Shown here piece by piece: positions 5,230-48,282 of a DNA stretch of 64,000 nt. Origin of the DNA: a candidate division WOR-3 bacterium. GTDB lineage: Bacteria; Hydrothermota; UBA3073. The position numbers were made by a program, and so were the translations under genes. The notes below the pieces were generated by a model. That model had not been told where the DNA came from, did no database searches, and worked only from the letters and a program-made list of their open reading frames with translations. How positions within the stretch are numbered: position 1 is the stretch's first letter; each line of letters begins with the position of its first letter. The stretch covers positions 201 through 64,200 of the forward strand of contig JAGMCL010000111.1 of NCBI GenBank assembly GCA_023129165.1, read 5' to 3'.

Positions 5230-6357
5230 ATGTTTACAAGGATTATTTTCTTATCAGGATTAATTTTTTTGAGCCTTGCGGGCTATACAAAAGGAAATGA
5301 GGCTATCTTCCCTGACCTGACCGGACAGGAACTTCTTGATAGCCTGATATACTATTATAAAACAGATACAGTATTACCTTACAGCATAGCAAGAGATACG
5401 TTATTTGCAAATGTTTACCAACATAACGATAGCTTAACGTGTGTATACTCCGGATATACAATCTATTTAGACCCACAAGAAGACCCGACACAAGATGCCT
5501 ATAGTAAGGGCATTGACACTGAACACACATGGCCTCAGAGCAAAGGTTCAGTTGGTCAGGCTAAGAGTGATATGTTTCACCTGTATCCAACCAGAGTAGT
5601 GGTTAATTCTTCCAGAGGAAATGACCCCTTTGCTGAAATCCCTGATCCAGATACGGATAAATGGTTTCGTCTGGATTATTATTTAACTACCATTCCTACA
5701 GAGTTTATCGACGAGTACAGTGAAAAGGATGAAGATGCGAATCTATTTGAACCGCGTGAAGATCATAAGGGGAATGTAGCTCGTGCTATGTTTTATTTCT
5801 ATACTATGTATAAGCGGCAGGCTGACAGCCTTGATCCAGAATATTTCGGGTTACAAAAGGATGTATTATACCAATGGCATCTTACTGATACAGTTGATTC
5901 AATGGAACGGATTAGAAATGATTTGATTGCATCTTATCAGGGAGATAAAAAAAATCCCTATATTTTAGATTCTTCACTTGTCAGACGGGCATATTTTTAT
6001 GAATCTACAGTGGTAACAGGTGATTATAAATTGCTTACAAATGACATAATATTAGAACAGAATTATCCAAATCCATTCAGTACAGAGACAGTTATTACTT
6101 TGGAGTGCATCAACATGGTTGATGCAGCTGTGACATGGTCACAGCACTCCATAAATATCTACGACCTCACTGGTCGACTCATCCGCACCATCCCTCTTAA
6201 TCTGTGTAATCCCAATAAATCCGTGCAATCTGTGATTTGGGATGGGAGAGATAACTCTGGAGAGAATGTTCCCGGTGGAGTATATTTTTATAGACTTAAC
6301 ATTGATGGAGATAACAATAGATTTACACAGACAAAGACGATGATACTATTAAGATAA
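5230..6357 (+). CDS. extracellular endonuclease I family nuclease with T9SS C-terminal sorting domain
   Basis: Endonuclease I motifs (TEHTWPQSKG, DMFHLYPTRVVVNSSRGNDPF), signal peptide, and a C-terminal PNPF ... IYDLTGRLI ... GVYFYRL Por_Secre_tail. Confidence 0.7.
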   Translation: MFTRIIFLSGLIFLSLAGYTKGNEAIFPDLTGQELLDSLIYYYKTDTVLPYSIARDTLFANVYQHNDSLTCVYSGYTIYLDPQEDPTQDAYSKGIDTEHTWPQSKGSVGQAKSDMFHLYPTRVVVNSSRGNDPFAEIPDPDTDKWFRLDYYLTTIPTEFIDEYSEKDEDANLFEPREDHKGNVARAMFYFYTMYKRQADSLDPEYFGLQKDVLYQWHLTDTVDSMERIRNDLIASYQGDKKNPYILDSSLVRRAYFYESTVVTGDYKLLTNDIILEQNYPNPFSTETVITLECINMVDAAVTWSQHSINIYDLTGRLIRTIPLNLCNPNKSVQSVIWDGRDNSGENVPGGVYFYRLNIDGDNNRFTQTKTMILLR

Positions 6358-6394
6358 TGTTATTCAGATATATGATAGTTTTTTATCTTTTTTC

Positions 6395-6423
6395 TTGACT
6401 TTTAGCACATTTTGAATTATAAT
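6395..6423 (+). promoter_or_regulatory. sigma70-like promoter, TTGACT-17-TATAAT
   Basis: Motifs at 6395-6400 and 6418-6423, followed by a leader of about 230 nt before the 6657 gene. Confidence 0.4.
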
Positions 6424-6656
6424 AAATATACATACATCTGAATTGTAGTAATAGAATAATACCTCGAGATTGCTTCGATAATTGTAGTACTCCACATAGC
6501 ATTCCAACCAGAAATAAGAGTGGCTTCAATAAGATAAAATTAATAAACCGCATATAGATAATCAGATTATAGTTCTCCAACTCTTATTCCTTCAGTGTTG
6601 TATGTCCTAATTCAACAAACTTCAAAATAGATAAATTCATTGAAAATTTATAAGAT

Positions 6657-8678
6657 ATGAAAAAGCTAATCGAGATACTTTGTGTAATTTTGCTTACAAG
6701 TAGCAATTTAATAGGGAATATTTACGCAAAATCCCAAGAAGTATATCTATTACCATCTCAACAGGGTGAACCGAGTAAAGTGATGTCTGTAGATAGGCTT
6801 TCAGCACATTCGCTAATACAGTATGATTGTGGAGAAAGTAGTCATTACCTAACTGATATCCTTCCTTGTGATACTATCGGGGTATTATTTGTTCCACCTT
6901 TCCCCTGCTCTCTTATTGAAGTTCATTTCTGTAGATATAAAAGGTTTGAGAATACACCCGACATATATTATGGTATTGTTGCTGATGTTCCTGATAGTGT
7001 AATACCTGAATCTTATGGGGAGTATCGTGATTCTACATCTATACCTGGTCCAAGCCCAATAGGTAATTTTTACCTGAGACCTGCTGCTATGGAGTTACCA
7101 TACACAGTAGGTTTTCACTGGGATACTCTCGTTATTCCAGGACAGCCAAATATAGACCAAAAGCTATTCTGGGCTGGGTATACAATTGAAGACACCTGCC
7201 ATTCAACGAGGGTAGATTTAAATGTTCCTCCTCCCTTTCATGCAATATGCTGGAGGCAAAGTGGTGCAGGACCCGAAACTAATGGTCCAGGATGGTATTC
7301 TTCATCTGATCTCTTCTGGATACGAGCACTTGTTAAATTCTATGGTCAGAACTATACTGGGGTTTCTGTTGAGAAATTAAAGAGTACATACGATACTCAC
7401 GATAGAATTGTTCATATCTATTCCTGGGATTACAATGAAGATTCGGCTGGTGTAGGATTTTATCCAGATTCAGCATTTCTATATTATTCTATAAATGAAT
7501 GTAATACTTTTAGAGTATCTCTTATACAAGATTCTGTTTATAACCCTGATCCATATTCCGAAGATGCCTGGTGGCATGCTATTATTCCTGGTCAGAGACC
7601 AGAGGTAAAAGTTACTTATTGGGTAGAACTTAAGTATAGAAGTGAGCTAAGACCTATATACATAACCCGATCATACTGGTATAAAGTAAAAAGAGGTAGA
7701 GATGACAATGGTCTCCTATACATTGAGGGTGATGAGGTTTGGGGTGGTGATGTGCACAATGCATTTGTAGGTCTACCCTGGGACATATGGTATGAAGCAG
7801 TTGATGGTGTTCCCGATAATACAGTGACAGATTTCTATGCCTTCGGTCCTGGTGGGCGGGCAATTTCCTGGCTTTCTTTAGCCGGAGTTACCTTTGCCAA
7901 TCCGTATGAGCCTGGTTGGTCTCATACTCAAGTGTTTAGGGACTTTATGGATTGTGGTAGTACTTTATTAGTCTCGGGTCAGGATATACCAGGTGGCGGC
8001 TATGGTCTCGGTTATGGCGACTGGGTCGCACCCCCATCACCACACCCGTTGAGGGATTATCTGAAGGCACACGCAGGAATAGACGATTACTTACTAACAT
8101 CTCCTTTCTTGGTCTTCGTCGATGCAACAGATGTGGTTACGATAGGCATGTCCGAAGAGATAACCATTGACTGTGGCTCTGTTATGCAGCCTACCCGGGT
8201 TGGAATATTCACAGACCTCGATCCCGCTTGTGTGCCTCTGTTCTTTGATGGTGAGGGCAATATTCTTGGATACAGGTATGAGTCAGCAAAGGGCTTTAGG
8301 GTTGTATTGCTCTACTTTCCCTTTCATGCAATAACAGATACGGATGAACAAGATATATTTATTGAAAACATAACTAACTGGTTTCCAGTGGGAGTGGAGA
8401 AAGAACCAGATGAATTCATATACGACCTTCCCATGGTCAGCCCGAATCCAATTTCAAGACCTACTATGATAAACTTCACCATGCCTAAAAACGAGCATGT
8501 ATCAATTAAAATATACGATGTAACAGGTTCGTTTATTAAAACACTTGCAAATGAAAGATTTAACGCAGGAAATCATACTCTTAAAATAAACACAGATGAA
8601 CTTATATCAGGTGTCTATTTCCTTAAAATGGATGTAGGTGAGTTTTCAGAAGTGAGGAAGTTTTTGGTTGTAAAATAG
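6657..8678 (+). CDS. secreted T9SS cargo protein, function unknown
   Basis: Signal peptide and a C-terminal CTD (SPNPISRPT ... IKIYDVTGSFI ... GVYFLKM). It shares an SGQDI-containing segment with the 48283 giant. Confidence 0.6.
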   Translation: MKKLIEILCVILLTSSNLIGNIYAKSQEVYLLPSQQGEPSKVMSVDRLSAHSLIQYDCGESSHYLTDILPCDTIGVLFVPPFPCSLIEVHFCRYKRFENTPDIYYGIVADVPDSVIPESYGEYRDSTSIPGPSPIGNFYLRPAAMELPYTVGFHWDTLVIPGQPNIDQKLFWAGYTIEDTCHSTRVDLNVPPPFHAICWRQSGAGPETNGPGWYSSSDLFWIRALVKFYGQNYTGVSVEKLKSTYDTHDRIVHIYSWDYNEDSAGVGFYPDSAFLYYSINECNTFRVSLIQDSVYNPDPYSEDAWWHAIIPGQRPEVKVTYWVELKYRSELRPIYITRSYWYKVKRGRDDNGLLYIEGDEVWGGDVHNAFVGLPWDIWYEAVDGVPDNTVTDFYAFGPGGRAISWLSLAGVTFANPYEPGWSHTQVFRDFMDCGSTLLVSGQDIPGGGYGLGYGDWVAPPSPHPLRDYLKAHAGIDDYLLTSPFLVFVDATDVVTIGMSEEITIDCGSVMQPTRVGIFTDLDPACVPLFFDGEGNILGYRYESAKGFRVVLLYFPFHAITDTDEQDIFIENITNWFPVGVEKEPDEFIYDLPMVSPNPISRPTMINFTMPKNEHVSIKIYDVTGSFIKTLANERFNAGNHTLKINTDELISGVYFLKMDVGEFSEVRKFLVVK

Positions 8679-8756
8679 AACCCCTTGTTGGGGTCAGACC
8701 CATAAATACAGGGTGGACTGAGTTAAGACTTTTTCTTTCATTCTTTTTATTTATAA

Positions 8757-8960
8757 CTATCCTGTATATCCAGTTAATCCAGTCAAGATTTTTCTTTTTT
8801 AGACAGGATATACAGGATGAACTGGATTTAATTATTTTTTTCTTTTAACAGAAAAAACTCTTTTTTATTTCAAATAATCATTATCCTGTCTATAGTGTTA
8901 ATCCTGTCAAATATGTCTTTTTTTAGACAGGATATACAGGATGAACGGGATTAAAATTTA
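8757..8960. repeat. two copies of an approximately 75-bp inverted-repeat element
   Basis: ATCCTGTATATCC ... GTTAATCC(A/T)GTCAA ... T-run ... GGATATACAGGAT occurs at 8757-8830 and 8878-8960. GTTAATCCTGTC recurs at 9130. Confidence 0.6.
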
Positions 8961-8995
8961 TTCATTTTGTCTTTTAAAATTATCCTGTATATCTT

Positions 8996-9122
8996 GCCTG
9001 CCCTGTAGTGATAATGTGCAGGGCCTGCCCTGTAGTGGTAATGTGCAGGGCCTGCCCTGTAGTGGTAATGTGCAGGGCCTGCCCTGTAGTGGTAATGTGC
9101 AGGGCCTGCCCTGTGCGAACGA
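8996..9122. repeat. tandem array of 27-bp hairpin repeats, about 4.7 copies, with no spacers
   Basis: The unit GCCCTGTAGTGGTAATGTGCAGGGCCT has a 6-bp stem (GCCCTG/CAGGGC) and a 13-nt loop. Confidence 0.85.
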
Positions 9123-9238
9123 AGTAATTTTACGGGGTTAATCCTGTCGAATAAAACAGTAAGTTATTTTTTTATACTGTTAAATCTTAGCCTGACCTCG
9201 TAAATGCTCCTTGTATAACAGACAAAAGGAGACATAGA

Positions 9239-10102
9239 ATGAGGAATGCACTAATTCTCTTATGTTTGGCTTATTTTGTTGTTCCTGCGGTTGCCGAGAA
9301 TCTTATTATAAATCCAGGATTTGATGAAACTCCATGGGATACTGGATGGTCCTGGAAAGGATGGTCGGAAGAAGGAATTAGTATTGCAATACCAGATACG
9401 GAAAGATACTACACATCACCTCGAAGTTGCATGTTGCGAGCTATGACAAGTTGGCGCGGTGCGTATATAGACCTTTTCCAGGAGATACAACCTGCAGTAT
9501 CTTGTACTTGTAGAGTTTATTTTCAAAATAGAAGCTATAACAGCATGTATGCATGCACAGAATATCGTATTTATGTAAAGGTAAATAATGATTATCAGAC
9601 AGAATGGGTTTGCGAAGGAGATAATCCTGTTTGGACAAAGTGGGAAAAAATATATACTTCTTCCGACACTATAAGTAGTATCGAGTTTGGCATCATTGCT
9701 GGGAGTGGGCTGCATGGCTTTACAGCAGACGGAAACTTCTGGATTGATGATGTTTATATATCAGGTATAGTTGTAGGAATCGAGGAGGATATAAGTAATA
9801 ACAATGACTTTTTAGAAGTGTATCCAAACCCTTTCAGGGAGAGAACAGTTATCAGTTTGGAGTGCATCAACCGTGTTGATGCTGCTGTGACATGGTCACA
9901 GCACTCCATAAATATCTACGACCTTACTGGTCGTCTCATCCGCACTATTCCTCTTCCCTCATCTCCCTTCACTCCTCTCAAAGTTGTCTGGGATGGTAAA
10001 GATAGACAGGGGAATGAAGTACTATCAGGAGTATATTTTATACGACTTGAAATAACCAGTGGGACAATCAGTTATCCAACCAAAAAGCTTGTAAAATTTT
10101 AA
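9239..10102 (+). CDS. secreted T9SS cargo protein, function unknown
   Basis: Signal peptide and CTD. The CTD segment LECINRVDAAVTWSQHSINIYDLTGRLIRTIPL is nearly identical at nucleotide level to 6100-6200. Confidence 0.6.
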   Translation: MRNALILLCLAYFVVPAVAENLIINPGFDETPWDTGWSWKGWSEEGISIAIPDTERYYTSPRSCMLRAMTSWRGAYIDLFQEIQPAVSCTCRVYFQNRSYNSMYACTEYRIYVKVNNDYQTEWVCEGDNPVWTKWEKIYTSSDTISSIEFGIIAGSGLHGFTADGNFWIDDVYISGIVVGIEEDISNNNDFLEVYPNPFRERTVISLECINRVDAAVTWSQHSINIYDLTGRLIRTIPLPSSPFTPLKVVWDGKDRQGNEVLSGVYFIRLEITSGTISYPTKKLVKF

Positions 10103-10117
10103 AATGTAAATACTAAA

Positions 10118-11386
10118 ATGCGTGAAAGATTAAATATCTTATTAGTGATAGTGTTTACACTATTAATTATAGAGTGCCTACAAGCTCAAGTTATTGCTAT
10201 AGATACTATCCAACTGGGTGCTGGAAATAATCCCTGTGATATTTCAGTTAATCCATATATAAAACGCATTTATGTATCATGCAAGGATAACAATATGGTC
10301 TTTGTTATTGATGAAACAAGCAATTCAGTTATCGATACTATATTGCTTAATCAACCTCGTGATATCTCAATTAATTCTAAAACTAATCGAATCTACATAA
10401 CACAAATTGGCAAAATTTCTATAATAGATGGTTTTACTAATTCTGTCATGGATTCAGTGACAATTGAAGACTATGCCGTTAATGTTTGTGTTAACCCCTT
10501 AACTAATCGAATTTATGTAACAGCGTGGAAGCGATATGCTATTGATCAAAACAGGGTTTACGTAATTGATGGCATAACTGATTCAATAACAACCACAATA
10601 CCTGTTGGTGAATACCCTGATGGTATTTCTATTAATTTAAAGCTCAACTATATTTATATAGCTAATTGGTATGGCAGCAGTGTCTATACAATTGCTGGGA
10701 CAAGTGATTCGATTATTGCTGCATTAGCAGTTGCCCAATGGCCTTATGGTATTTGTGTTAATCCAAAAACAAATTACGTTTATGTAGCCCATTATTATCA
10801 TTCTGTTTGGTACAATTCTAACCTTGTATCTGTAATAGATGAAACTAATAATTCAGTTTTAGCTACAGTAATTACTGGAACGAGTCCACGTTCTGTTTGC
10901 GTAAATCCAGAAAATAATCGGGTATATGTAGCGAATGAAGTCAGTAATGATGTTTACGTGATTGATGGAACAAGTTTTTCAGTAGCAGATATAATTCCTG
11001 TTGGCGTAAAACCTTATAGCATAGACGTTAATCCAACAAATAACAGAATTTATGTTACATGTTATGAAGATGAAGCGATATATGTACTTGAGGATTTAGT
11101 AGGAATAGAGGAACCCAGCTTTATACCTGAATCCTTTTCTCTTACTTTATTAGAAAATCCTGTGAAAGAGAAGGCAATTTTTCATTTGAATCTTTCAGAA
11201 GATGTTATAGTTACTTTACGAATATATGATATAATGGGTCGTTTGGTTGATTTGCTGCTTAATGAAAGGAAGGCTGCTGGTTTTTATGAAATATCATGGA
11301 TACCAGAGGTGAGTGCAGGCGTCTATTTCTATGTTCTGGAAACAGCACAAACAAAAAAATCAGGTAAGATAGTTTTGATAAAATAG
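10118..11386 (+). CDS. YVTN-family beta-propeller repeat protein with T9SS CTD
   Basis: Repeated NRIYVT / NYVYVA / NRVYVA blocks about 40 aa apart, a signal peptide, and the CTD RIYDIMGRLV ... GVYFYVL. Confidence 0.7.
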   Translation: MRERLNILLVIVFTLLIIECLQAQVIAIDTIQLGAGNNPCDISVNPYIKRIYVSCKDNNMVFVIDETSNSVIDTILLNQPRDISINSKTNRIYITQIGKISIIDGFTNSVMDSVTIEDYAVNVCVNPLTNRIYVTAWKRYAIDQNRVYVIDGITDSITTTIPVGEYPDGISINLKLNYIYIANWYGSSVYTIAGTSDSIIAALAVAQWPYGICVNPKTNYVYVAHYYHSVWYNSNLVSVIDETNNSVLATVITGTSPRSVCVNPENNRVYVANEVSNDVYVIDGTSFSVADIIPVGVKPYSIDVNPTNNRIYVTCYEDEAIYVLEDLVGIEEPSFIPESFSLTLLENPVKEKAIFHLNLSEDVIVTLRIYDIMGRLVDLLLNERKAAGFYEISWIPEVSAGVYFYVLETAQTKKSGKIVLIK

Positions 11387-11578: not shown

Positions 11579-14449
11579 ATGAAATACTTAAAAAACATAA
11601 AATATAGAAAGAGTCTAAATTGTTTGTTGGCAGGCAAAAAAACCTCGTTAGTAATATTTATGATACTTGTTTGTTTATCTGCAAAGGCAAATACTGATAA
11701 CAATATCGACGAGAGATGGAGTGATATTTTGAGACAAGGAGAGTGTAGAACATGGAGTTCAGGGGTAGAAGAAAAGAGGAGACGATTGAGAGGAGATATA
11801 CTAGAAATGAATGGGGAAGCCATTCCTATTCGAATGCCAAAGGGAGAAATTGTAACTGAAACTCAACTGGAAGTAATAAAAGATGTAATTAAAAATGACT
11901 TTCTTGTCAATGATGATACTACTTTTGGATGTTATCAATATACTCCTTCAGTAGGGATGAATGGTTCAGGTTGCTTTGTAATCTGCTGGCAGGATGGACG
12001 TAATAGCAACAGGGACATCTACACGCAGATATATGATGCTGGAGGGACTCCTCAGGGGTCTAACTTCAGGGTGAATGATGATGCAGGGACAAGTGAAAAA
12101 TGGTACCCTTCAGTAGCGATGGATGGTTCAGGCGGCTTTATAATCTGCTGGGAGGATGGACGTAATGGTGACTGGGATATCTATGCACAAATGTATAATG
12201 CCAGTGGGGCTCCACAAGGTCCTAACTTCAGGGTGAATGATGATGTAGGGTCAAGTAGTCAATGGTATCCTTCAGTAGCGATGAATGGGTATAGCAGCTT
12301 TGTAATCTGCTGGCAGGATGGACGTAATGGCGACAAGGACATCTACGCGCAGATGTATGATGTTAGTGGAAGTCCACAGGAATTTAACTTCAGGGTGGAT
12401 GATGATACAGGGTCAAGTTATCAACGCTGGCCTTCAGTAGCGATGGATGGGTCAGGCAGTTTTGTAATCTGCTGGAAGGATGAACGTAATGATTGGGATA
12501 ATCCTGACATCTACGCGCAGATTTATGATGTTAGTGGGACTCCACAGGGTTCTAACTTCAGGGTAGATGATGATACATGGGCAAGCGATCAATATACTCC
12601 TTCAGTAGCGATGGATGGGTCAGGCAGTTTTGTAATCTGCTGGAAGGATGAACGTAATGATTGGGATAATCCTGACATCTACGCGCAGGTGTATGATGCA
12701 AGTGGAACTCCCCAGGGGTCTAACTTCATAGTGAATGATAATACAGGGTCAAGCGGTCAACACAGGCCTTCAGTAGCGATGGATGGGTCAGGCAGTTTTG
12801 TGATCTGCTGGTATGATCGGCGTAATGATGATTATGACATCTACGCGCAGGTGTATGATGCAAGTGGAACTCCCCAGGGGTTTAACTTCATGGTGAATGA
12901 TGATGTAGGGTCAAGTAGTCAATGGTGTCCTTCAGTAGCGATGAATGAGTCAGGCAACTTTGTGATCTGCTGGGAGGATAAGCGTAACGGTGACAGGGAC
13001 ATCTACACACAGAGGTATGATGCTGGAGGGACTCCACAGGGTTCTAACTTCAGGGTGAACGATGATACAGGATCAAGTAGTCAATGGTATCCTTCAGTAG
13101 CGATGAATGGGTATAGCAGCTTTATAATCTGCTGGGAGGATGTACGTTATGGCAACAATGACATCTATGCACAGATGTATGATGCCAGTGGGACTCCACA
13201 GGTATCTAACTTCAGGGTGAATGATGATACATGGATGTATCGAGGGTATCCTTCAATAGCAATTGATAGTTCAGGCAACTTTTTAATCTGTTGGCAGGAT
13301 CTGCGTAATAGCTGGGATTATCCCGATCCTGACATCTACGCGCAGATGTATGATGCTGGAGGGACTCCACAGGGTTCTAACTTCAGGGTGAATGATGATA
13401 CAGGGGAATGTAGGCAAAAGTATCCTTCAGTAGCGATGGATAGGTCTGGCAGCTTTGTAATCTGCTGGTATGATCGACGTAGTTACGAGAAGGACATCTA
13501 CGCGCAGATGTATAATGCGAGTGGGACTCCTCAGGGGTCTAACTTCAGAGTGAATGATGATGTAGTGTCAAGAGATCAATGGTATCCTTCGGTAGCGATG
13601 GATGGGTCAGGCAGCTTTGTAATCTGTTGGGAGGATAAACGTAATGGCAACTGGGATATCTATGCACAAAGGTATGATACTAATGGAACTCCACTGGATT
13701 CCAACTTCAGGGTGAATGATGATACAGGTGTAAGTGAACAAGGGTATCCTTCAATAGGGATGGATGGTTCAGGCAGCTCTTTAATCTGTTGGGAAGATGA
13801 ACGTAATGGTGACAATGACATCTATGCACAGATGTATGATGCAAGTGGGAATCCTCAGGGGTCTAACTTCAGGGTGAATGATGATGCAGGTGTAAGTGAA
13901 CAAGGGTATCCTTCAATAGCGATGGATCCATTCGGGAGCAGGTTTGTAGTTGTATGGACAGATTTCAGAAATCCTGACGGTGACCCTGAGATTGTGGCGC
14001 AGAAATACGTGAATGGATCTCCTGTTGGTAACAATGTTCAGATAAATGAGCCTGATTTATTTCTGTATAATCATCAATTGTCAGGAAAATACTCTGTTGA
14101 TTGCAATAATGATATAGTTGTATTTACGTGGATGGACAATCGTAGGCATAAGGGGTGGGACATATATGGCAAATTGACCGATTGGGAACTTGTGGGGATA
14201 GAAGAAGATATAATACCTCAGGTTCCAGACCTTAAACTGAGAGTATATCCTAATCCCTTCCGTAGTCGTATTACAATATGTGGAGGAGATAGTAAGCTGG
14301 AAATCTATGACCTCTGTGGGAGATTGATAATAAAAACAGATAATAACTCCTGGAATGGTACAGACCAAAAGGGTAATGAAGTACAATCAGGTATTTATTT
14401 TATAAAGTCTAAAGGTTATGAACCTATGAAAGTAGTGAAGACAAAGTGA
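11579..14449 (+). CDS. T9SS cargo protein built from about 17 tandem repeats of roughly 46 aa
   Basis: Repeat consensus GTPQGSNFRVNDDTGSSSQWYPSVAMDGSGSFVICWEDGRNGDxDIYAQMYDAS. The array spans 11900-13950 with a DNA period of 138-144 bp. C-terminal CTD is VYPNPF ... EIYDLCGRLI ... GIYFIK. Confidence 0.7.
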   Translation: MKYLKNIKYRKSLNCLLAGKKTSLVIFMILVCLSAKANTDNNIDERWSDILRQGECRTWSSGVEEKRRRLRGDILEMNGEAIPIRMPKGEIVTETQLEVIKDVIKNDFLVNDDTTFGCYQYTPSVGMNGSGCFVICWQDGRNSNRDIYTQIYDAGGTPQGSNFRVNDDAGTSEKWYPSVAMDGSGGFIICWEDGRNGDWDIYAQMYNASGAPQGPNFRVNDDVGSSSQWYPSVAMNGYSSFVICWQDGRNGDKDIYAQMYDVSGSPQEFNFRVDDDTGSSYQRWPSVAMDGSGSFVICWKDERNDWDNPDIYAQIYDVSGTPQGSNFRVDDDTWASDQYTPSVAMDGSGSFVICWKDERNDWDNPDIYAQVYDASGTPQGSNFIVNDNTGSSGQHRPSVAMDGSGSFVICWYDRRNDDYDIYAQVYDASGTPQGFNFMVNDDVGSSSQWCPSVAMNESGNFVICWEDKRNGDRDIYTQRYDAGGTPQGSNFRVNDDTGSSSQWYPSVAMNGYSSFIICWEDVRYGNNDIYAQMYDASGTPQVSNFRVNDDTWMYRGYPSIAIDSSGNFLICWQDLRNSWDYPDPDIYAQMYDAGGTPQGSNFRVNDDTGECRQKYPSVAMDRSGSFVICWYDRRSYEKDIYAQMYNASGTPQGSNFRVNDDVVSRDQWYPSVAMDGSGSFVICWEDKRNGNWDIYAQRYDTNGTPLDSNFRVNDDTGVSEQGYPSIGMDGSGSSLICWEDERNGDNDIYAQMYDASGNPQGSNFRVNDDAGVSEQGYPSIAMDPFGSRFVVVWTDFRNPDGDPEIVAQKYVNGSPVGNNVQINEPDLFLYNHQLSGKYSVDCNNDIVVFTWMDNRRHKGWDIYGKLTDWELVGIEEDIIPQVPDLKLRVYPNPFRSRITICGGDSKLEIYDLCGRLIIKTDNNSWNGTDQKGNEVQSGIYFIKSKGYEPMKVVKTK

Positions 14450-14472
14450 TTGGAAAGTAAGAAGGAAACAAT

Positions 14473-15524
14473 GGGGTTAAATCTCGAAACTTGACAAATA
14501 ATCAATTCTCGTTATAATAATATTATGGCAAGACCATTAAGAATAGAATATCCGGGTGCCTTTTACCACGTGACCTGCCGTGGCAATGGACGTGCAAATA
14601 TCTTTTTTAATGATGGAGATCGACAGAGGTTTCTTATGATGCTTGAAGAGTCAATAAAAATCTATCGGGTTATTCTCAATGCTTATATCTTGATGGATAA
14701 TCACTTTCATCTGTTGGTGCAGACCGAGCGTGCTAATCTATCAGAGTTCATGCGTCGTTTTAATGTTTCTTATACTGGTTGGTTCAATTATCGGCATGAT
14801 CGTTGTGGCCATCTCTATCAGGGAAGATACAAGGCTTTCTTGATAGATGTAGATAGTTACTTACTTGAGGTTTCCCGTTACCTTCACTTAAATAGTGTCC
14901 GGGCAAGAAGCTTACATTCCTTGGATTATCAAAGGCAGTGGCAGTATGCAAAGAAATATAAATGGAGTAGTTTGCCTGGGTATATTAGTAAAAAGCGGGT
15001 TGCTGATTTCATTAAATACGACATGATTCTTGAGATGGTTGGTGGTCGGCGTAGGTATCAATCATTTATATTGGATGGATTAAAGCATGACATTGATAAT
15101 CCTTTTGAGGAGGCGCAGAATCAGGTGATATTGGGTGGTGATGAATTTATCGCTCGTATTAAGAGTGAATATACAGATGGTTCGTTACGTGAACAGCCAT
15201 CATATCGTGATTTAATGGTGGAGATCGTAGAACCAGAGTTGGTAATGAAATGTGCTACTGAGACATTGGGTATTGAGCGAGGGGATTTACAGAAACGTTA
15301 TGTTAATAGTGATGCTCGTGGTATTGTGAGTGATTTGTTGTATAGATATAGTGCTTTGACCCAGGTTGAGATAGGGAAGTTATTAGGAGGCATTGACTAT
15401 ACAGGGGTTAGCAAGTTGCGAGTTCGTTTGAGGCGGAGGATGTCATATGACAAGCGGGTTAGTGCGAGTTATGAGAAAACCGAGGCAAAGCTTAAGGAAT
15501 TGTCAAGTTTCGAGATTTGACCCC
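14473..15524 (+). mobile_element. compact RAYT-type Y1 HUH unit bounded by 25-bp imperfect inverted repeats
   Basis: GGGGTTAAATCTCGAAACTTGACAA at 14473-14497 and its reverse complement, with one mismatch, at 15500-15524. The left repeat contains the -35 TTGACA of a TTGACA-16-TATAAT promoter (-10 at 14513-14518). Confidence 0.55.
14525..15520 (+). CDS. REP-associated tyrosine transposase-like protein (IS200-like Y1 HUH family) with a C-terminal helical extension
   Basis: HUH motif NHFHLLVQ, catalytic-Tyr region GHLYQGRYKAF, and N-terminal YHVTCRGN, as in COG1943 proteins. A single ORF with no tnpB. Confidence 0.7.
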   Translation: MARPLRIEYPGAFYHVTCRGNGRANIFFNDGDRQRFLMMLEESIKIYRVILNAYILMDNHFHLLVQTERANLSEFMRRFNVSYTGWFNYRHDRCGHLYQGRYKAFLIDVDSYLLEVSRYLHLNSVRARSLHSLDYQRQWQYAKKYKWSSLPGYISKKRVADFIKYDMILEMVGGRRRYQSFILDGLKHDIDNPFEEAQNQVILGGDEFIARIKSEYTDGSLREQPSYRDLMVEIVEPELVMKCATETLGIERGDLQKRYVNSDARGIVSDLLYRYSALTQVEIGKLLGGIDYTGVSKLRVRLRRRMSYDKRVSASYEKTEAKLKELSSFEI

Positions 15525-15548
15525 ATTACCTACTCAAATTGATTTCAT

Positions 15549-15700
15549 GTCCTGCCTGACGGTAGGTAGGCAAGAGATTACTTGACGCCTTTCCTGCCTG
15601 TCGGCCAGACAGGTAATTATTATCACAGCATATACGCTGCGGGCTTCGCCCTTGACCTTCGGGACATGCTCCCTTCGGTCACAGGTCGTATATCATGGAA
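15549..15700. repeat. cluster of REP-like GC-rich palindromes
   Basis: CCTGCCTGACGGTAGGTAGGCAAG, CCTGCCTGTCGGCCAGACAGG, and CCTTCGG direct repeats. Confidence 0.6.
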
Positions 15701-15752
15701 CCGTTAGGCGAAATTATTCTTGGAAAAGCAACAATGTTAAGGAGGTAAAGAA

Positions 15753-16262
15753 ATGATGAGAAGTATAAGACATGTAAAAATCCCGTTATTTCTAATATCG
15801 AGTTTCCTTTGTTTAATGTTTTTGTTTTCTGGTTGTTCATCTGAATCTGAAAAAGATACTGCTAAACCACCTAACTATACGGACAAGATAGAGATTGAAG
15901 TGATACTGGAACCTTCAAGTAATCTTGAAGATCTGCATCAAAATGATATTATTTACACAATCACAAATTATGGAGACAAGACTATCACAGAGCTTTCCTG
16001 CGAGGTTGTATTCTATAATCGAGACGATACGGAAGTAGGAAGAATGCCTTGGTTGTTTCTCACAGTTGACAAGAAGTGGGAAGGTTTAGCCGTTGAAAGT
16101 CAGAAGGCAGTATATCGTTCTCTTCCTCCTGGCAAAACAATGAGCGCTGGTTATCCTTATCCTGCCTTCTTTGTCGGTCAGCCAGAACTCAGAAGTAAAG
16201 TAAAAGCTAACTGGGACAATCTGACAGTAAAACCAATTATAAAAAAGGTAATTGTAAAATAG
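15753..16262 (+). CDS. lipoprotein, function unknown
   Basis: Signal peptide with lipobox FSGCSS. Confidence 0.45.
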   Translation: MMRSIRHVKIPLFLISSFLCLMFLFSGCSSESEKDTAKPPNYTDKIEIEVILEPSSNLEDLHQNDIIYTITNYGDKTITELSCEVVFYNRDDTEVGRMPWLFLTVDKKWEGLAVESQKAVYRSLPPGKTMSAGYPYPAFFVGQPELRSKVKANWDNLTVKPIIKKVIVK

Positions 16263-16461
16263 TTGCTTATTTATGCAATTTCTAAAAGCTTAGCTTATCA
16301 GTGGATAAAAGGGAAATCCCTATCTGCTGATAGGCAGGAAAAATATTCCCAACTCCTGACAAGTTAAAACTTGTTTTATCCTCGATATGTTAGGTGAAAT
16401 CGTGACTATTTGGTCTGGAAGTGTTCAACAGAGGTTGTAAAGGATGGATTGCAATTTTTCC

Positions 16462-18443: not shown

Positions 18444-19064
18444 TTAATTGGTTGATTAGTTGAATAGTTGAATGTTACATATGAAATGTTTGATGTGATG
18501 GTAGGAGCGACTTCCTAGTCGCGATAGAGGGAAGAGCGTCCCAGTGGAATAGTTGACACATTCCACAGGATAAATAGGGCGTAATGCGAAGAGCGTAGGG
18601 AGTAGGGCGATTGATGATTGACGAATGACGATTGAAGATTAGGGACATGTTAAAGGGTAAAAGGCAAATGGCAAATGTAATTAATTGTGGATTTCGGATT
18701 GCGAATTAGGGAAATGTTAAATATTTAATAGGATAAGAGTTAATTAGTTGAATATTAGATGTTACATGTTGAATGTTTAATGTTGAATGGGAAATTGACG
18801 ATTGGCGATTGAAGATTACGAATTTATAATTTCCATTTGAAAATTGGCTTGATCCTTTAACCATATTACTTTTTTACCTTTACCTTTTACTTTTTACTTT
18901 TACCTTTTTACTTATCTAATGACTCAATGACCCTAAGACTCTATTTATAAACCCAATGAACCCAATAAACTAAACAAACCAGACAAACTAAATAAACTAA
19001 ACAAACCAAATAAACTCAATAAACTCAACAAACCGTGTAAACTCAATAAACTAATTTTACTTTT
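18444..19064. repeat. 600-bp low-complexity word-repeat spacer
   Basis: Runs of ttgaatgtt, gattgaagatta, ttttacctttt and aaataaactaaacaaacc-type 9-mers. GTAGGAGCGACTTCCTAGTCGCGATA at 18507-18532 recurs at 20229-20254. Confidence 0.6.
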
Positions 19065-20150
19065 ATGAAAATATTAATGGTATCTGATTTATATTACCCC
19101 CATACGGGTGGTGTTTCTGAACATATATACCATTTGTCATGTGAGTTAATTAAAAAGGGGCACTGTGTTACTGTAATGGCACCACATATGACCGGGGAGG
19201 AGGATACTGTTGAAATACCACCAGTTGCAAGGGTAGGGAAGGCTATACCAATTTTGGCAAATCGTTCACATTCTCAGGTTGCAGTTGCATGGGATATACA
19301 AAAACAGGTGAATGATGTGCTTGAAAGTGGATTTGATATTATTCACATACACAGTTTTGTTCCAGTGCTTCCTATTCTTGCCTTGAAACATTCAAATACC
19401 AGGAATGTTATAACTGTTCATGCAGCCTACGAAAAGAGTCTTCCTTATACAGCATCTAAGAGATATTTATTGAGGTATTTTAATAAGTTACATGCAAGGA
19501 TAGCCGTTTCAAAGGTTGCGGAAAATTCGCTGTCGATGTTTTTCCCGGGAAGGTATAAAATAATACCAAATGGGGTGGATATTAATAGATTTAATCCAGA
19601 TGTTAAACCACTGCCGGAATTTGAGGGAAGATTTAATATACTCTTCGTTGGAAGGTTTGAACCCAGAAAGGGTTTGAGATATTTACTTTCTGCATTTCAT
19701 ATTATAAAAAGACAGGTTCCATGGGCAAGGCTAATCGTGGTAGGAAGTGGTAGATTTGAGGTTCCCAAGAGATATACAGATGATATAATTTTGCGTAGAT
19801 GTGTCCATTCTTCACTGATTCCAAGTTACTATACATCTGCAGATGTCTTTTGCAGTCCTGCGACAGGGAATGAGAGTTTTGGAATTGTATTAATTGAGGC
19901 TATGGCTTGTGGAATACCTGTTGTGGCATCATCTATTGCGGGTTACAGGTGTGTTATTAAGAATGGAGAAAATGGAATATTAGCAGAAAACAGGAATCCT
20001 CAGGCCATAGCATCTGCTATTATAGGACTTGCAAGAGATAGGATTACACGAGAGGAACTGGGTAAAAGGGGAAGGCAATTTGCCACCTCGTTCTCCTGGG
20101 ATAAAATAACAAATAAGGTTGAGGAAGTTTATAATTCATTATATGATTAA
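19065..20150 (+). CDS. glycosyltransferase family 4
   Basis: GT-B EX7E region ESFGIVLIEAMACGIPVV. Confidence 0.8.
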   Translation: MKILMVSDLYYPHTGGVSEHIYHLSCELIKKGHCVTVMAPHMTGEEDTVEIPPVARVGKAIPILANRSHSQVAVAWDIQKQVNDVLESGFDIIHIHSFVPVLPILALKHSNTRNVITVHAAYEKSLPYTASKRYLLRYFNKLHARIAVSKVAENSLSMFFPGRYKIIPNGVDINRFNPDVKPLPEFEGRFNILFVGRFEPRKGLRYLLSAFHIIKRQVPWARLIVVGSGRFEVPKRYTDDIILRRCVHSSLIPSYYTSADVFCSPATGNESFGIVLIEAMACGIPVVASSIAGYRCVIKNGENGILAENRNPQAIASAIIGLARDRITREELGKRGRQFATSFSWDKITNKVEEVYNSLYD

Positions 20151-21677: not shown

Positions 21678-21870
21678 ATATCCTTCCCAATTTACTTTCC
21701 TTTACAAAAGATAGAGCTATGATATCCTAAGAATTTATATCTATGTGCATAGAAGTCATATGTTTTCAAAAGATATCTTTTGATAAATAAAATTAAGATT
21801 TTTATTAATATGATTCTAAGATTGTACAATTTATTTTTAAGCACCAAGGGAACATTTTTTAATTTTTTAC

Positions 21871-21899
21871 TTGACAAAAAGTAATTTTTTTATTATAAT
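21871..21899 (+). promoter_or_regulatory. sigma70-like promoter, TTGACA-17-TATAAT
   Basis: Would give an ORF-free leader of about 350 nt before the 22256 gene. Confidence 0.4.
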
Positions 21900-22255
21900 A
21901 TATGTAGATATCCTACTTTTATTGTAAGTGAATGTTAAAGCTAATATAATCCACATTCCTATTGAACTCCTCGTATACTTAACGAGATCTAACGAACTGC
22001 AATTAGAAATACACCTTAAAGAAACACGCAGTAATTATTCCTACTTGATAGAACAAGATTTAGAATTGTAGTAGCCTCTTAAAATTAATCATCTCCTGTT
22101 CATATAGATACCCATCATTATAAGAGATCAACTCAGTTTCAAACGAAAAAACTAAATATCACGCTCTTCTTATCAGTCTCTTAATTTTATATGTTTTTAG
22201 AGTCAATTTTAGATAGCGTCAGTTCTTGGTGGATAATTAACCCAAGGAATTAGAG

Positions 22256-23674
22256 ATGAGAAACTTCCGTAACATGATATTTTTTTACGTAGTAATATTT
22301 AGTTCTATGACTGTCTTTTCCTGGACTACTCCGACTAATATATCAAATAGTGAGATGGTGTCGGCAGATCCTTCAATTGCAATTGGCAAAGACAATCTCG
22401 TACATGTAGTGTGGGATGAAAGAGATGATCACACTGAAGCTGAAATTTTCTATTCTTATTGCATGGAAAACTCCTGGATTCAACCAATTAATGTCTCACA
22501 TAATTCATACTTTTCATGGTTACCTACTATAGCGACTGATACAACTGGATATCCACATGTCGTTTGGACCGACTCTGGAGACGATTGGTTGTATTGGTCC
22601 TTTTTTAATGGTGAGAACTGGGTTACCCCAGAAGATATCTTCAATCAGCAGGGGTTGGACTATATGCCCAGGATGGTTTCAGATGAGTTGAATCAGTTAC
22701 ACTTAGTTTGGTATAACTGGGGTACAAATAATGAAATTTGGTACGCTAACTATAATGGAAGTTCTTGGTCCTCACCTATTAATGTAACAAACGATGAAGA
22801 TGACTCAGCATTCCCTGATATAGCAATTGATTCAGAAGGAAACATTCATGTCGTATGGATCAACTATGGTGCGGCAGGACATCCAGACAGCATTGATATA
22901 TACTATTCAAAATACGATGGTTTATCGTGGTCGATCCCAGTTAATATTTCAAATTTAGTCGGTTCGTCTTGTTACCCTCTTATTTCGATTGATTCTCGAA
23001 ACAGTCCTCATGTGGTTTGGGAGGAAAGATGGACTGATACAATAGGACATTACAGTCCCTACTATACATTCTTTGATAGTACCTACTGGTCTGAACCATA
23101 TATGCTTACAGATTCTTGCGAAAATGGTATTGAGCCGATTATTGGGGTTGATTCGAAAGACAGGGTACACATATTATGGACTAAAGGAGAATTCGGAGGT
23201 GGAATTTTTTATAGATACCTTGAAGGTGATACTTTTTCAAACTCTTATGAACTATCTGATACTGGTTGGGTACCATCTATAGCCATTGACTATGATGATA
23301 ACCTTCATGTGGTATTTGGAGTGTTTGGCGAAATCTATTATTGCAAGCATGTACAAACAGGCATAAATTTTTTTGAAGATAACCAGTCCTTTCTTAAACA
23401 ATTCAGATTGAATCAGAATTTTCCAAATCCTTTTATCGAGAAAACCATAATTTCCTACTATGTACCCTATGAGTGTTACGTGGGTATTACTATTTATGAT
23501 ATAGCTGGCCGTATGATTGAGAGTATAGACCTAGGTTGCAGTGCAGAGGGATTTAACACTTACACTATAACGAAAAATAGGTTAATCAATAGAGGTAGCG
23601 GTATCTATTACTATCAATTAGATGCGAGTAATCATACCCTAACAAGAAAGATGGTATTTTGTAGAACTATGTGA
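22256..23674 (+). CDS. secreted T9SS cargo with about 50-aa HVVW-type repeats
   Basis: Signal peptide and repeats (PHVVWTD, LHLVWYNWG, IHVVWINYG, PHVVWEERW, VHILWTKGE). CTD is FPNPF ... ITIYDIAGRMI ... GIYYYQL. Confidence 0.6.
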   Translation: MRNFRNMIFFYVVIFSSMTVFSWTTPTNISNSEMVSADPSIAIGKDNLVHVVWDERDDHTEAEIFYSYCMENSWIQPINVSHNSYFSWLPTIATDTTGYPHVVWTDSGDDWLYWSFFNGENWVTPEDIFNQQGLDYMPRMVSDELNQLHLVWYNWGTNNEIWYANYNGSSWSSPINVTNDEDDSAFPDIAIDSEGNIHVVWINYGAAGHPDSIDIYYSKYDGLSWSIPVNISNLVGSSCYPLISIDSRNSPHVVWEERWTDTIGHYSPYYTFFDSTYWSEPYMLTDSCENGIEPIIGVDSKDRVHILWTKGEFGGGIFYRYLEGDTFSNSYELSDTGWVPSIAIDYDDNLHVVFGVFGEIYYCKHVQTGINFFEDNQSFLKQFRLNQNFPNPFIEKTIISYYVPYECYVGITIYDIAGRMIESIDLGCSAEGFNTYTITKNRLINRGSGIYYYQLDASNHTLTRKMVFCRTM

Positions 23675-23715
23675 AAAAGACCCAAAGGGGGTCAGGTCTT
23701 TAGTTTTAAATTTAC

Positions 23716-23744
23716 TTGACTTTTTCTAAAAGATATATTATATT
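23716..23744 (+). promoter_or_regulatory. sigma70-like promoter, TTGACT-17-TATATT
   Basis: Lies between a 16-nt inverted repeat pair with no ORF downstream. See the sRNA finding. Confidence 0.3.
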
Positions 23745-23994
23745 GATACTCAAATGTTTCAATTATTGTTAAATATTTTGAAATTCAGATAGTAAAAAAC
23801 CCACACCCTGGAGAAAAGTTTATAAGGTTACATAAAAAACTTAAAACTAAAGACCTGACCCCATGATTCCACCTTTTTTCCCCAAAAATTGTCTAAATTA
23901 TCAAAAAAGGTTATTTAATACCGTTTTGAATTTATATGATTTTATAAAGCCCTTCTGAATAAGGTTTTGTGAAATATTTTTTGCTAAATTTTTC

Positions 23995-24023
23995 TTGACA
24001 ATCGTCGAAAAATGTGGTATAAT
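23995..24023 (+). promoter_or_regulatory. sigma70-like promoter, TTGACA-17-TATAAT, for gyrB
   Basis: Exact consensus hexamers. Confidence 0.5.
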
Positions 24024-24060
24024 AATGCATGTAAGATATATACAAATTTTATATTAAAAA

Positions 24061-24240
24061 GATTCTGTGAAAAATGATATGAATGAATATATCCGAAGGG
24101 TTCGCATGGAAAAGAACAAGTATCGAAGTTCGTGATGTATTTTTCCAGTCTCGAGCTTCCAGTTTCGAGTTTCGTTACGAGTTTCCATACCGATAAACTA
24201 GTTTCGATAATATTGGTTTTGTGAAGCACTATAATAAGTA
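24061..24240 (+). repeat. degenerate copy F of the leader-associated repeat family
   Basis: CTGTGAAAAATGATATGAATGAATATA ... AGGGTTCG matches the left end of copies A-E. Lies between the gyrB promoter and its start codon. Confidence 0.35.
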
Positions 24241-24290
24241 GTAGTTCAGTATCAGCTAATTTTTTATCATCAAATATTATATTAAAATAG

Positions 24291-47714: not shown

Positions 47715-47929
47715 AGAGCATGACTTCGGACAACGGTAGGGACAGGGCTCGTCCCTGTCGAGTAATGGAGTGATATAGGGCAGGAGTATTGGGATATCTG
47801 GAGTGCATTAGCTTGCTAATGTAAAGGGTAGAGTGAGTTTGTTATAGATTACAGATTGTAGATATTAGATAGGGAGGTTGTTGACACCTGATTCAATTTT
47901 ACCTGATTTCTTCAGAGGGGTACTGAATC

Positions 47930-48003
47930 GTAGGGCAAGGCTTAAGCCTTGCAAAAGCAAACCTAAAGCCTGCCTGCCGGTAGGCAGGGTTTGCCCTACA
48001 TTA
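47930..48003 (+). repeat. compound REP-like palindromic element, upstream copy
   Basis: GTAGGGCAA ... GGCTTAAGCC ... CCTGCCTGCCGGTAGGCAGG ... TTGCCCTAC. An approximately 90% identical copy in inverted orientation lies at 53443-53512. Confidence 0.7.
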
Positions 48004-48282
48004 ATAGGTTAATAAAAGCTTCATGATTGCCCTGCTTACAAACAGGTGTCAAGCAAGTCAACATTGTTACCTGTAACATAATAATTTATGTTCCTCCTGG
48101 GCTTATATGATACTATTTCAATTCGTGCTTGCACGGTTAAAAACCGCGACTGCCGTCAGGCAGGCGTGCCTACATTTTAAGTAGGCCGTGTTTGTAGGCA
48201 CGAATTCAATTCGTGCTTGCTATCAAACTTGGTCACCCTTCAGTGTGACCATTATGCAAACTTTATTGACCTGGAGGTGATT

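Follow-up and report, generated by a model that had tools for sequence, protein, structure and literature searches.

A secreted fourteen-repeat protein of a candidate division WOR-3 bacterium, predicted to fold as two beta-propellers whose internal blades appear to evolve in concert

Results

The gene and its repeat units

We examined a 64,000-nucleotide stretch of DNA, referred to below as the window, from a candidate division WOR-3 bacterium (GTDB lineage Bacteria; Hydrothermota; UBA3073; assembly GCA_023129165.1, contig JAGMCL010000111.1, positions 201 to 64,200 of the forward strand). Our subject is the gene at positions 11579-14449 of the window, which encodes a secreted protein built of tandem repeats. 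An earlier reading of the letters and their translations (the sequence-only reading) had described a 956-residue open reading frame (ORF) here, and the ORF list agrees, giving a single intact frame on the + strand. The same reading took the product to be type IX secretion system (T9SS) cargo. This assignment holds, since the C-terminal sorting domain exceeds the curated cutoffs of both Pfam Por_Secre_tail (PF18962; residues 889-946, 34.5 bits against a cutoff of 27) and TIGR04183 (33.4 bits against 23), and a family profile aligns the tail to the solved C-terminal domains (CTDs) of PorU and of the cargo bound in 8glj/8glk. At the other end of the protein, residues 1-37 form a probable Sec signal peptide, which was recognised by eye in the translation. 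The parts of the gene are collected in Table 1.

The repeat unit is approximately 54 residues (162 bp) long. Successive P-S-V-A-M anchors lie 54, 54, 54, 56, 56, 54, 54, 53, 58, 54, 54 and 54 residues apart, defining 13 clear units between residues 122 and 832, and a hidden Markov model (HMM) built from these 13 detects a degenerate 14th unit at residues 833-869. Tandem Repeats Finder likewise reports a period of 162 over positions 11944-13927 (12.1 copies, 79% matches, score 2038). The sequence-only reading had counted about 17 repeats of 46 residues with a DNA period of 138-144 bp, a parsing that is ruled out by the anchor spacing, the period and the HMM count; the consensus string that it gave is accurate, and its own length is 54 residues. 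Its description of the units as near-identical was an overstatement, as pairwise DNA identity among units 1-12 ranges from 0.73 to 0.88 (approximately 78% on average) and mean protein identity is 0.69 for units 1-12 and 0.64 when all 13 are included.

Table 1. Features of the repeat gene and of a related neighbouring gene (positions in the window; aa, amino acids; CDS, coding sequence; MAG, metagenome-assembled genome)
Feature	Position	Strand	Basis or remark
Complete CDS	11579..14449	+	956 aa, stop codon included; 91%-identical 954-aa orthologue in a WOR-3 MAG
Probable Sec signal peptide, aa 1-37	11579..11689	+	K-rich n-region, hydrophobic SLVIFMILVCLSA, AKA then N; read by eye
N-terminal linker, aa 38-102	11690..11884	+	AlphaFold2 pLDDT mostly <50, low confidence
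Extra N-terminal outer strand DFLVNDD, aa 103-109	11885..11905	+	Strand at residues 103-109 in the full model
Blades 1-12, homogenised 53-58-aa units	11942..13906	+	Anchors, Tandem Repeats Finder period 162, strands A-D per unit
Starts of blades 1-12	11942, 12104, 12266, 12428, 12596, 12764, 12926, 13088, 13247, 13421, 13583, 13745	+	
90-nt stretch in unit 4 matching unit 5 (12599-12688) at 100%, 6-nt insertion included	12431..12520	+	Alignment against the units of the sister MAG (L001)
Blade 13, divergent (FVVVWTDFRNPDGDPEIVAQKY...), positional orthology retained	13907..14074	+	DNA identity to other units 0.51-0.59
Blade 14, degenerate, three strands (...IVVFTWMDNRRHKGWDIYGKLTD)	14075..14185	+	14th domain of the repeat HMM, ending at aa 869
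T9SS type-A C-terminal sorting domain, aa 889-956	14243..14446	+	PF18962 and TIGR04183 above cutoffs
472-aa T9SS cargo with seven looser related blades, separate gene	22256..23674	+	Family HMM, hhalign

Predicted fold

We modelled the full-length protein with AlphaFold2 from a 73-sequence alignment. The model has a mean predicted local distance difference test score (pLDDT) of 85.2 and a predicted TM-score (pTM) of 0.73, with pLDDT values of 82-97 in most 10-residue blocks of the repeat region, and contains four strands that recur every ~54 residues. Assigning these strands with DSSP gives 14 successive sets of strands A, B, C and D, of which the last, blade 14, has only three strands of its own (residues 840-842, 846-853 and 861-868). 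A fragment consisting of the N-terminal strand and blades 1-7 was modelled with a pLDDT of 88.3 and a pTM of 0.89, the latter indicating one compact domain. When the fragment was compared with the PDB using Foldseek, it matched solved seven-bladed propellers, always at an identity of 14% or less. The matches included the CylK propeller (query-normalised TM-score, TMq, 0.72-0.74), the CV39L lectin (TMq 0.65-0.69; target-normalised TM-score, TMt, 0.71-0.77), propellers of the polysaccharide lyase and glycoside hydrolase groups PL42/GH145 and PL24/25, prolyl oligopeptidase propellers and sialidases, and the whole protein matched the double seven-bladed GH74 enzymes at a TMq of 0.40-0.44. The sequence-only reading, which had suggested an AlphaFold model and a Foldseek comparison, had considered both a beta-propeller and a beta-solenoid. 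The superposition of blades 1-7 on solved seven-bladed propellers bears out the first of these, and the same models and matches rule out the solenoid.

Another way to view the arrangement of the blades is through the family's larger members. In seven giant relatives of 1,587-3,937 aa, the blades are grouped in runs of 7, 14 or 42 with spacers between them, which shows by a route independent of the model that the structural module is a seven-bladed propeller. Runs of 8 occur in three of these seven proteins, where the eighth match is probably an extra outer-strand hit. In the largest proteins, of ~7,000-7,900 aa, blades are detected less evenly. Thus, the protein shares with seven-bladed beta-propellers the repetition of a four-stranded blade, the superposition on solved structures (TMq up to 0.74) and, through its relatives, a grouping of blades in sets of seven, and its 14 blades are predicted to form two such propellers in tandem. 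The extra strand at residues 103-109 is ordered in the full model and disordered in the fragment that lacks blades 8-14, a behaviour that fits a velcro closure with the three-stranded final blade; the model makes it likely that this DFLVNDD strand completes the blade without a fourth strand of its own.

Blade number among homologues

A word-indexed search found at least 2,436 significant proteins, and blade number was examined in the best 120 of these (36-91% identity), nearly all of which are 830-1,060 aa long and most of which end in a T9SS CTD or a dockerin. With the repeat HMM, 13 or 14 blades are detected in 118 of the 120. A count of 13 means that the degenerate last blade was missed, and the count of 15 obtained for three proteins reflects a spurious or partial extra match. 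The orthologue in the nearest genome, a WOR-3 MAG (L001) that was assembled independently, also has 14 units and differs in length by one 6-nt indel only. We conclude that blade number is mostly fixed at 14, and that the hotspot for length variation envisaged by the sequence-only reading finds no support in the homologues or in this closest relative, although rare variants may exist.

If the gene were instead a contingency-type locus, its repeat number would expand and contract over time; a related possibility is that its length is an artefact of assembly. The units do share exact DNA tracts sufficient for RecA-mediated exchange, with tracts of at least 30 nt in nine of the 66 unit pairs and a longest tract of 90 nt, and two homologues that appear complete, having both a signal peptide and a CTD, contain only 9 (P0049, 640 aa) and 11 (P0061, 783 aa) detected blades. 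These two could be real contractions or collapsed assemblies; 9 or 11 blades cannot form two seven-bladed rings. However, the near-constancy of the count among the homologues, the identical number of units in the independently assembled orthologue and the runs of 7, 14 or 42 in the giant relatives (few of 8), which imply a structural constraint on blade number, together make a locus of this kind, or an artefactual length, highly improbable.

Concerted evolution of the internal blades

The orthologue in the sister MAG is 91% identical in protein and 95% identical in DNA, and is the one true orthologue among five loci found when related loci were scanned with the single protein. Blades within the protein are on average 0.69 identical to one another. 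Compared with homologues, in contrast, their identity is 0.542 to blades at the same position and 0.541 to blades at other positions, and positional orthology of the internal blades is seen only in the 91% orthologue. The ends of the array behave otherwise. Blade 13 has a same-position identity to homologues of 0.48, against 0.44 to internal units, and for blade 14 the corresponding values are 0.50 and 0.355. The N-terminal strand is similarly retained, a loose pattern for it ([DE][DE]?F.[VIL]N[DE]) being found in the first 260 residues of 112 of 121 family members.

Individual exchanges between units can also be recognised, by setting the gene against that of the sister MAG. Unit 4 of the gene studied here is a mosaic, in which the first 90 nt match unit 5 and the 3' end is orthologous to unit 4 of the sister. 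A 6-nt insertion within this stretch is present in unit 5 only in the sister MAG, and in units 4 and 5 here. Judged from this alignment, positions 12431-12520 are a recent gene-conversion tract. Differences between the two genomes are concentrated in blades 1-7, with 6-21 per unit, as against 3 in 363 nt in the N-terminal part, and for 92 of the 114 differences in units 1-12 both alleles are found in paralogous units, where ~45 would be expected at random. The middle of unit 4 in the sister MAG (TGGTATGATCAGCGTAATGATGATTATGAC) resembles unit 6 of both genomes (window-equivalent 12428-12925), which suggests a second, independent conversion event in the sister lineage.

The absence of positional orthology, together with the 90-nt tract, therefore points to concerted evolution of the array, as do the higher identity within than between proteins and the excess of differences shared with paralogous units. 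The simplest reading of these sequence comparisons is that the internal blades are homogenised by intragenic gene conversion and that selection maintains the count and the terminal blades.

A different origin for such similarity has been put forward by Pereira and Lupas (2022; PMC9218822), who ascribe high blade identity to continual re-amplification from single blades and make no mention of conversion. Repeated recent re-amplification from a single blade in each lineage would also yield blades more alike within than between proteins, and blades 1-12 without positional orthology, and the same pattern is read in that paper as independent amplification. Re-amplification would not, however, readily leave blades 13 and 14 and the N-terminal strand positionally orthologous across the family, nor 13 or 14 blades in almost all homologues. 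The mosaic unit has acquired its converted tract with no change in copy number relative to the sister genome, and polymorphisms are common to paralogous units at twice the random expectation. For these reasons we regard re-amplification as unlikely in this case, and prefer gene conversion at constant copy number.

A large family without a curated model

The sequence-only reading was unable to place the repeat in Kelch, NHL, YVTN, PQQ or BNR, and our searches of Pfam-A and NCBIfam lead to the same outcome. In scans of Pfam-A with the target protein, consensus blade triplets and three multi-domain relatives, only the sorting domain was above threshold. The Pfam models Kelch, NHL, YVTN, PQQ, WD40 and SBBP give no match even at E<=1 with the 956-aa protein or at E<=10 with the consensus triplets. 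BNR (PF02012) is likewise without a match, and the canonical Asp-box (SxDxGxTW) is absent from the blades; their D-G-S-G-N-F hairpin has a spacing unlike that of the Asp-box and is located between strands A and B. With the consensus triplets, BNR_4 (PF15892), which we take to belong to the sialidase clan, recurs below threshold at 19-23 bits (cutoff 27.3). NCBIfam model TIGR04275 (beta_prop_Msarc repeat) matches six stretches at 46.2 bits (E=2.7e-12; cutoff 85), a resemblance that, as a sequence match, is statistically real yet sub-threshold. Neither the single sequence nor the family profile found a sequence relative of the propeller part in the PDB. Searches of the literature on the motif, on 14-bladed and T9SS propellers and on WOR-3 brought up no paper on this repeat, and a preprint on giant genes (10.1101/2023.11.21.568195) covers RCC1 and other propellers and not this one.

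To estimate the size of the family, a 54-position profile of a single blade was run exhaustively with HMMER against 1.84 billion representatives of public proteins clustered at 50% identity. It matched 43,215 cluster representatives at a threshold of E<=1e-3, and at E<=1e-30 the number was 7,546. Among the source organisms are WOR-3, Zixibacteria, Calditrichaeota, Bacteroidota, Zhuqueibacterota, Blastopirellula sediminis and Pirellulales; the family ranges over the Fibrobacteres-Chlorobi-Bacteroidetes (FCB) group and allied phyla and the Planctomycetes. Of the sampled members with a source name, most are listed as hypothetical protein or take their name from the sorting tag. The sequence-only reading was thus right to suspect a repeat family outside the curated Pfam and NCBIfam models, whereas any implication of rarity falls away, as there are tens of thousands of members in several phyla. 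In the three multi-domain relatives, one of them among the seven giants, Pfam domains of the PKD, Ig-like, FG-GAP and TIG types lie outside the runs of blades.

A sister blade type, with the pattern ...DGDFVVVW-S--QDGSG-G[IV][FY]AQR[FY]...EF-VNT-T..., is found with 42-69 detected blade matches in Planctomycete and unassigned giants of 3,800-7,900 aa (P0121, P0174 and P0123/P0133/P0140). P0121 is Blastopirellula sediminis WP_230214495.1 and P0174 is Pirellulales MBN2021737.1. Where blades of these proteins group cleanly they form seven-blade runs with spacers, and P0121 also has PKD/Ig-type domains; the named records among these giants are annotated as hypothetical, 'EF-hand' or 'trypsin-like'.

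Predicted function

We propose that the gene product is secreted, and probably displayed on the surface of the WOR-3 cell. From its N-terminus it would consist of the Sec signal peptide, a flexible linker, a spare outer strand, 14 blades of ~54 aa and the T9SS type-A CTD. The blades would fold into two seven-bladed propellers, with the spare N-terminal strand filling in the three-stranded final blade. Blades 1-12 would be kept alike within each gene through intragenic gene conversion, and the terminal blades and the blade number would be fixed by the need to close two rings. The protein may then act as a non-enzymatic, multivalent binding module on the cell surface, making its contacts through variable residues of the B-C and D-A loops. 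We hold the structural and evolutionary description, taken together, with considerable confidence. The multivalent, non-enzymatic surface-binding function is a tentative prediction that could well prove mistaken, while the explanation as a whole, a secreted double propeller with conversion-homogenised blades and multivalent surface binding, is the one we consider probable.

The case for binding begins with the distribution of variation among blades. Columns 1, 17, 19, 26-28, 34 and 52-58 of the unit alignment vary from blade to blade, and here the per-site frequency of non-synonymous differences (pN) equals or exceeds that of synonymous differences (pS). These columns are interleaved with the invariant residues W16, D18, R20 and D50 and the nearly invariant D51 and Q57, and lie in the B-C and D-A loops. 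As a rule, these two sets of loops lie together on one side of a propeller, the side where ligands usually bind. There is no blade-specific conservation, which makes a single asymmetric active site unlikely. Additionally, fusion partners in relatives include dockerin, PKD, Ig-like, FG-GAP and TIG modules, and such fusions, typical of extracellular binding proteins, favour a binding role.

Were the protein instead a carbohydrate-active enzyme (of the glycoside hydrolase or polysaccharide lyase kind), the expected place for the active site would be the propeller centre or the cleft between propellers, as in the GH74 xyloglucanases or PL42/GH145. The Foldseek neighbours include GH74 double propellers, PL42, GH145, PL24/25 and sialidases, the recurrent sub-threshold matches to BNR_4 are in keeping with this idea, and one homologue is adjoined by GH31 and melibiase genes. 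However, the identity to all of these structural neighbours does not exceed 14% and no family threshold is reached, the homogenisation of blades 1-12 without position-specific residues is hard to square with a unique catalytic constellation, and the neighbourhoods examined hold no conserved genomic link to polysaccharide utilisation. Thus, an enzymatic role appears distinctly unlikely.

If the protein were no more than a structural part of the surface, acting as a coat, spacer or scaffold, it would have no specific ligand, and its conserved loop residues would act only to stabilise the ring. Every blade has the residues W, D, R, N, DIY-Q, N-F-V-N-D-D, Q and P, which recur unchanged in thousands of proteins, as a structural role predicts, and the Planctomycete branch is without the acidic loop motifs. 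This account has more difficulty with the clustering of variable positions in the B-C and D-A loops, with pN at or above pS, and with the fusions to dockerin, PKD, Ig and FG-GAP modules that are typical of binding proteins, and we judge it unlikely.

Several points weigh against surface binding by a double propeller and against the explanation as a whole. The two-by-seven partition, the velcro pairing and the positions of the loops are deduced from strand assignment by DSSP, from pLDDT and Foldseek scores and from the architecture of the family. Across blades, pN/pS is 0.54 overall, so that positive selection is only suggested. The Planctomycete subfamily has other residues in place of the acidic loop motifs (DxRN, NDD), and these motifs may serve structure instead of ligand binding. 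Enzymes make up many of the best structural neighbours (CylK, GH74, PL42, sialidases), and the genomic neighbourhoods of three distant homologues have no informative neighbours in common. Finally, T9SS machinery (SprA, PorV, PorU and so on) did not turn up among the ORFs of the window that were scanned, no search of the genome having been aimed at it.

Neighbouring genes in the window

The sequence-only reading had noticed a looser version of the repeat in the neighbouring cargo gene at 22256-23674, and this observation stands. The 472-aa product has seven blades with the pattern P-x-I-A-I-D-x-x-G-N-x-H-V-V-W ... I-Y-Y. The family blade HMM matches seven stretches of it at E=1.7e-4, hhalign gives a 73% probability for its relationship to the blade family, and it has sub-threshold matches to SBBP (PF06739; 18.8 bits, cutoff 20.5) and to 'PDIAV motif lipoprotein'. 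On these profile scores it appears to be a weak, remote relative of the target's blade family. The segment carrying it, 21695-24286, is missing from the sister MAG (L001 10201-10389), where the flanks are 96-98% identical; the cargo gene content thus differs between close relatives.

Por_Secre_tail ends at least eight genes of the window, the target included, with such genes lying among other places at 5230-11386 and 45531-53418. Besides the target and the 472-aa propeller, they encode an Endonuclease I protein, a 673-aa protein, a carbohydrate-binding module (CBM)-like protein, an NHL/YncE propeller, an LVIVD-repeat protein and a 1,733-aa PQQ_2-like protein. Propellers of different families account for several of these genes. 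The target stands in a same-strand run of tail-bearing genes with the first four listed, and the 472-aa propeller and the last two are elsewhere in the window.

Directly downstream of the propeller gene, ~2 kb of the window (14470-16455) are absent from the closest WOR-3 MAG (L001 5414-5686). This segment contains a 331-aa IS200/Y1-transposase-like ORF (14525-15520; PF01797) and a 169-aa ORF (15753-16262) that has a lipoprotein-like N-terminus and no Pfam match, and it looks like a recent insertion. Further along, AT-rich tandem repeats with periods of 7/13 and 9/27 (for example AAACCAAATAAACTCAATAAACTAAAC x3.9) occupy the intergenic positions 18866-19054, immediately upstream of a glycosyltransferase-like ORF at 19065-20150.

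Discussion

The protein described here is an ordinary secreted propeller fold that belongs to a very large family unmodelled by the curated libraries searched. The practical significance of this lies in annotation: a 54-residue blade present in 43,215 cluster representatives is covered by neither Pfam nor NCBIfam, in the copies searched, and is without a solved structure. Adding one repeat model would be enough to annotate many large surface proteins in WOR-3, Zixibacteria, Calditrichota, Ignavibacteria/Bacteroidota and Planctomycetes. The gene is also a clean case of concerted evolution under structural constraint, with the blade number mostly fixed at 14, the terminal blades orthologous and the internal ones homogenised, the 90-nt conversion tract being visible among them. 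This bears on how symmetric propellers are read, as high internal identity is usually taken to signify recent amplification, and conversion accounts better for it here.

A broader possibility, which we regard as doubtful, is that the whole of this uncurated superfamily, from T9SS or dockerin proteins of 900 aa to Planctomycete giants of 8,000 aa, constitutes a bacterial surface-recognition scaffold in which conversion-homogenised blades carry diversifying loops, akin to fungal WD40 repeats. If so, it would provide a test case for the idea that symmetric propellers of youthful appearance can be old arrays maintained by conversion and not newly amplified ones.

The closest known systems include the highly repetitive bacterial propellers, such as the 14-blade WRAP of Nostoc punctiforme with its two seven-bladed propellers (Chaudhuri et al. 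2008; PMC9218822). Membership of this class has been set at a median internal blade identity above 60% (PMC9218822), and the mean identity here is 0.69 over blades 1-12 and becomes 0.64 once blade 13 is included. The target resembles these proteins in its bacterial origin, its 14 tandem blades, its internal identity above 60%, its predicted two-by-seven arrangement and an architecture of the amplification type. It differs from the WD40-type WRAP (~40 aa per blade) in its 54-aa blade and in having no WD40, VCBS or Asp-box signature, and it is not joined to a STAND ATPase but secreted by way of a T9SS tag. In contrast to the amplification account of PMC9218822, the evidence here favours gene conversion at fixed copy number.

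The likeness to the CV39L lectin (PDB 6gxs) and the CylK propeller (PDB 7roo, 7fh6), which give the best superpositions of blades 1-7 (TMq 0.65-0.74, TMt up to 0.77), is one of fold alone; the sequence identity is 10-14%, and the sequences show no relationship. At the level of sequence, TIGR04275, BNR_4 and, for the neighbouring cargo only, SBBP give weak repeated matches to a 'D-x-S-G-N-F-V-I-x-W' hairpin, although all are below their cutoffs (46 against 85, 23 against 27.3 and 18.8 against 20.5). With T9SS type-A cargo of the FCB group the target shares a CTD that scores above threshold and aligns to solved CTDs, and at least seven other CTD genes lie nearby. It departs from such cargo in its WOR-3 host, and in that close homologues carry a dockerin in place of the CTD.

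For the HNWD and HET-E proteins of fungi, repeat number is reportedly unstable and positive selection is said to have been formally shown. These are eukaryotic, cytoplasmic NLR-type proteins, whereas the target is bacterial, its blade number is mostly fixed and selection on it is only suggested. The common ground between the target and the HNWD/HET-E WD40 repeats (Paoletti et al. 2007; Chevanne et al. 2010) is concerted evolution, with hypervariable positions standing beside invariant structural ones. The fungal WD40 recognition genes are a documented case of propeller repeats evolving in concert (PMC1805685, PMC2873952). Thus, the concerted evolution of propellers is already known, and the WOR-3 protein is a new bacterial instance of it.

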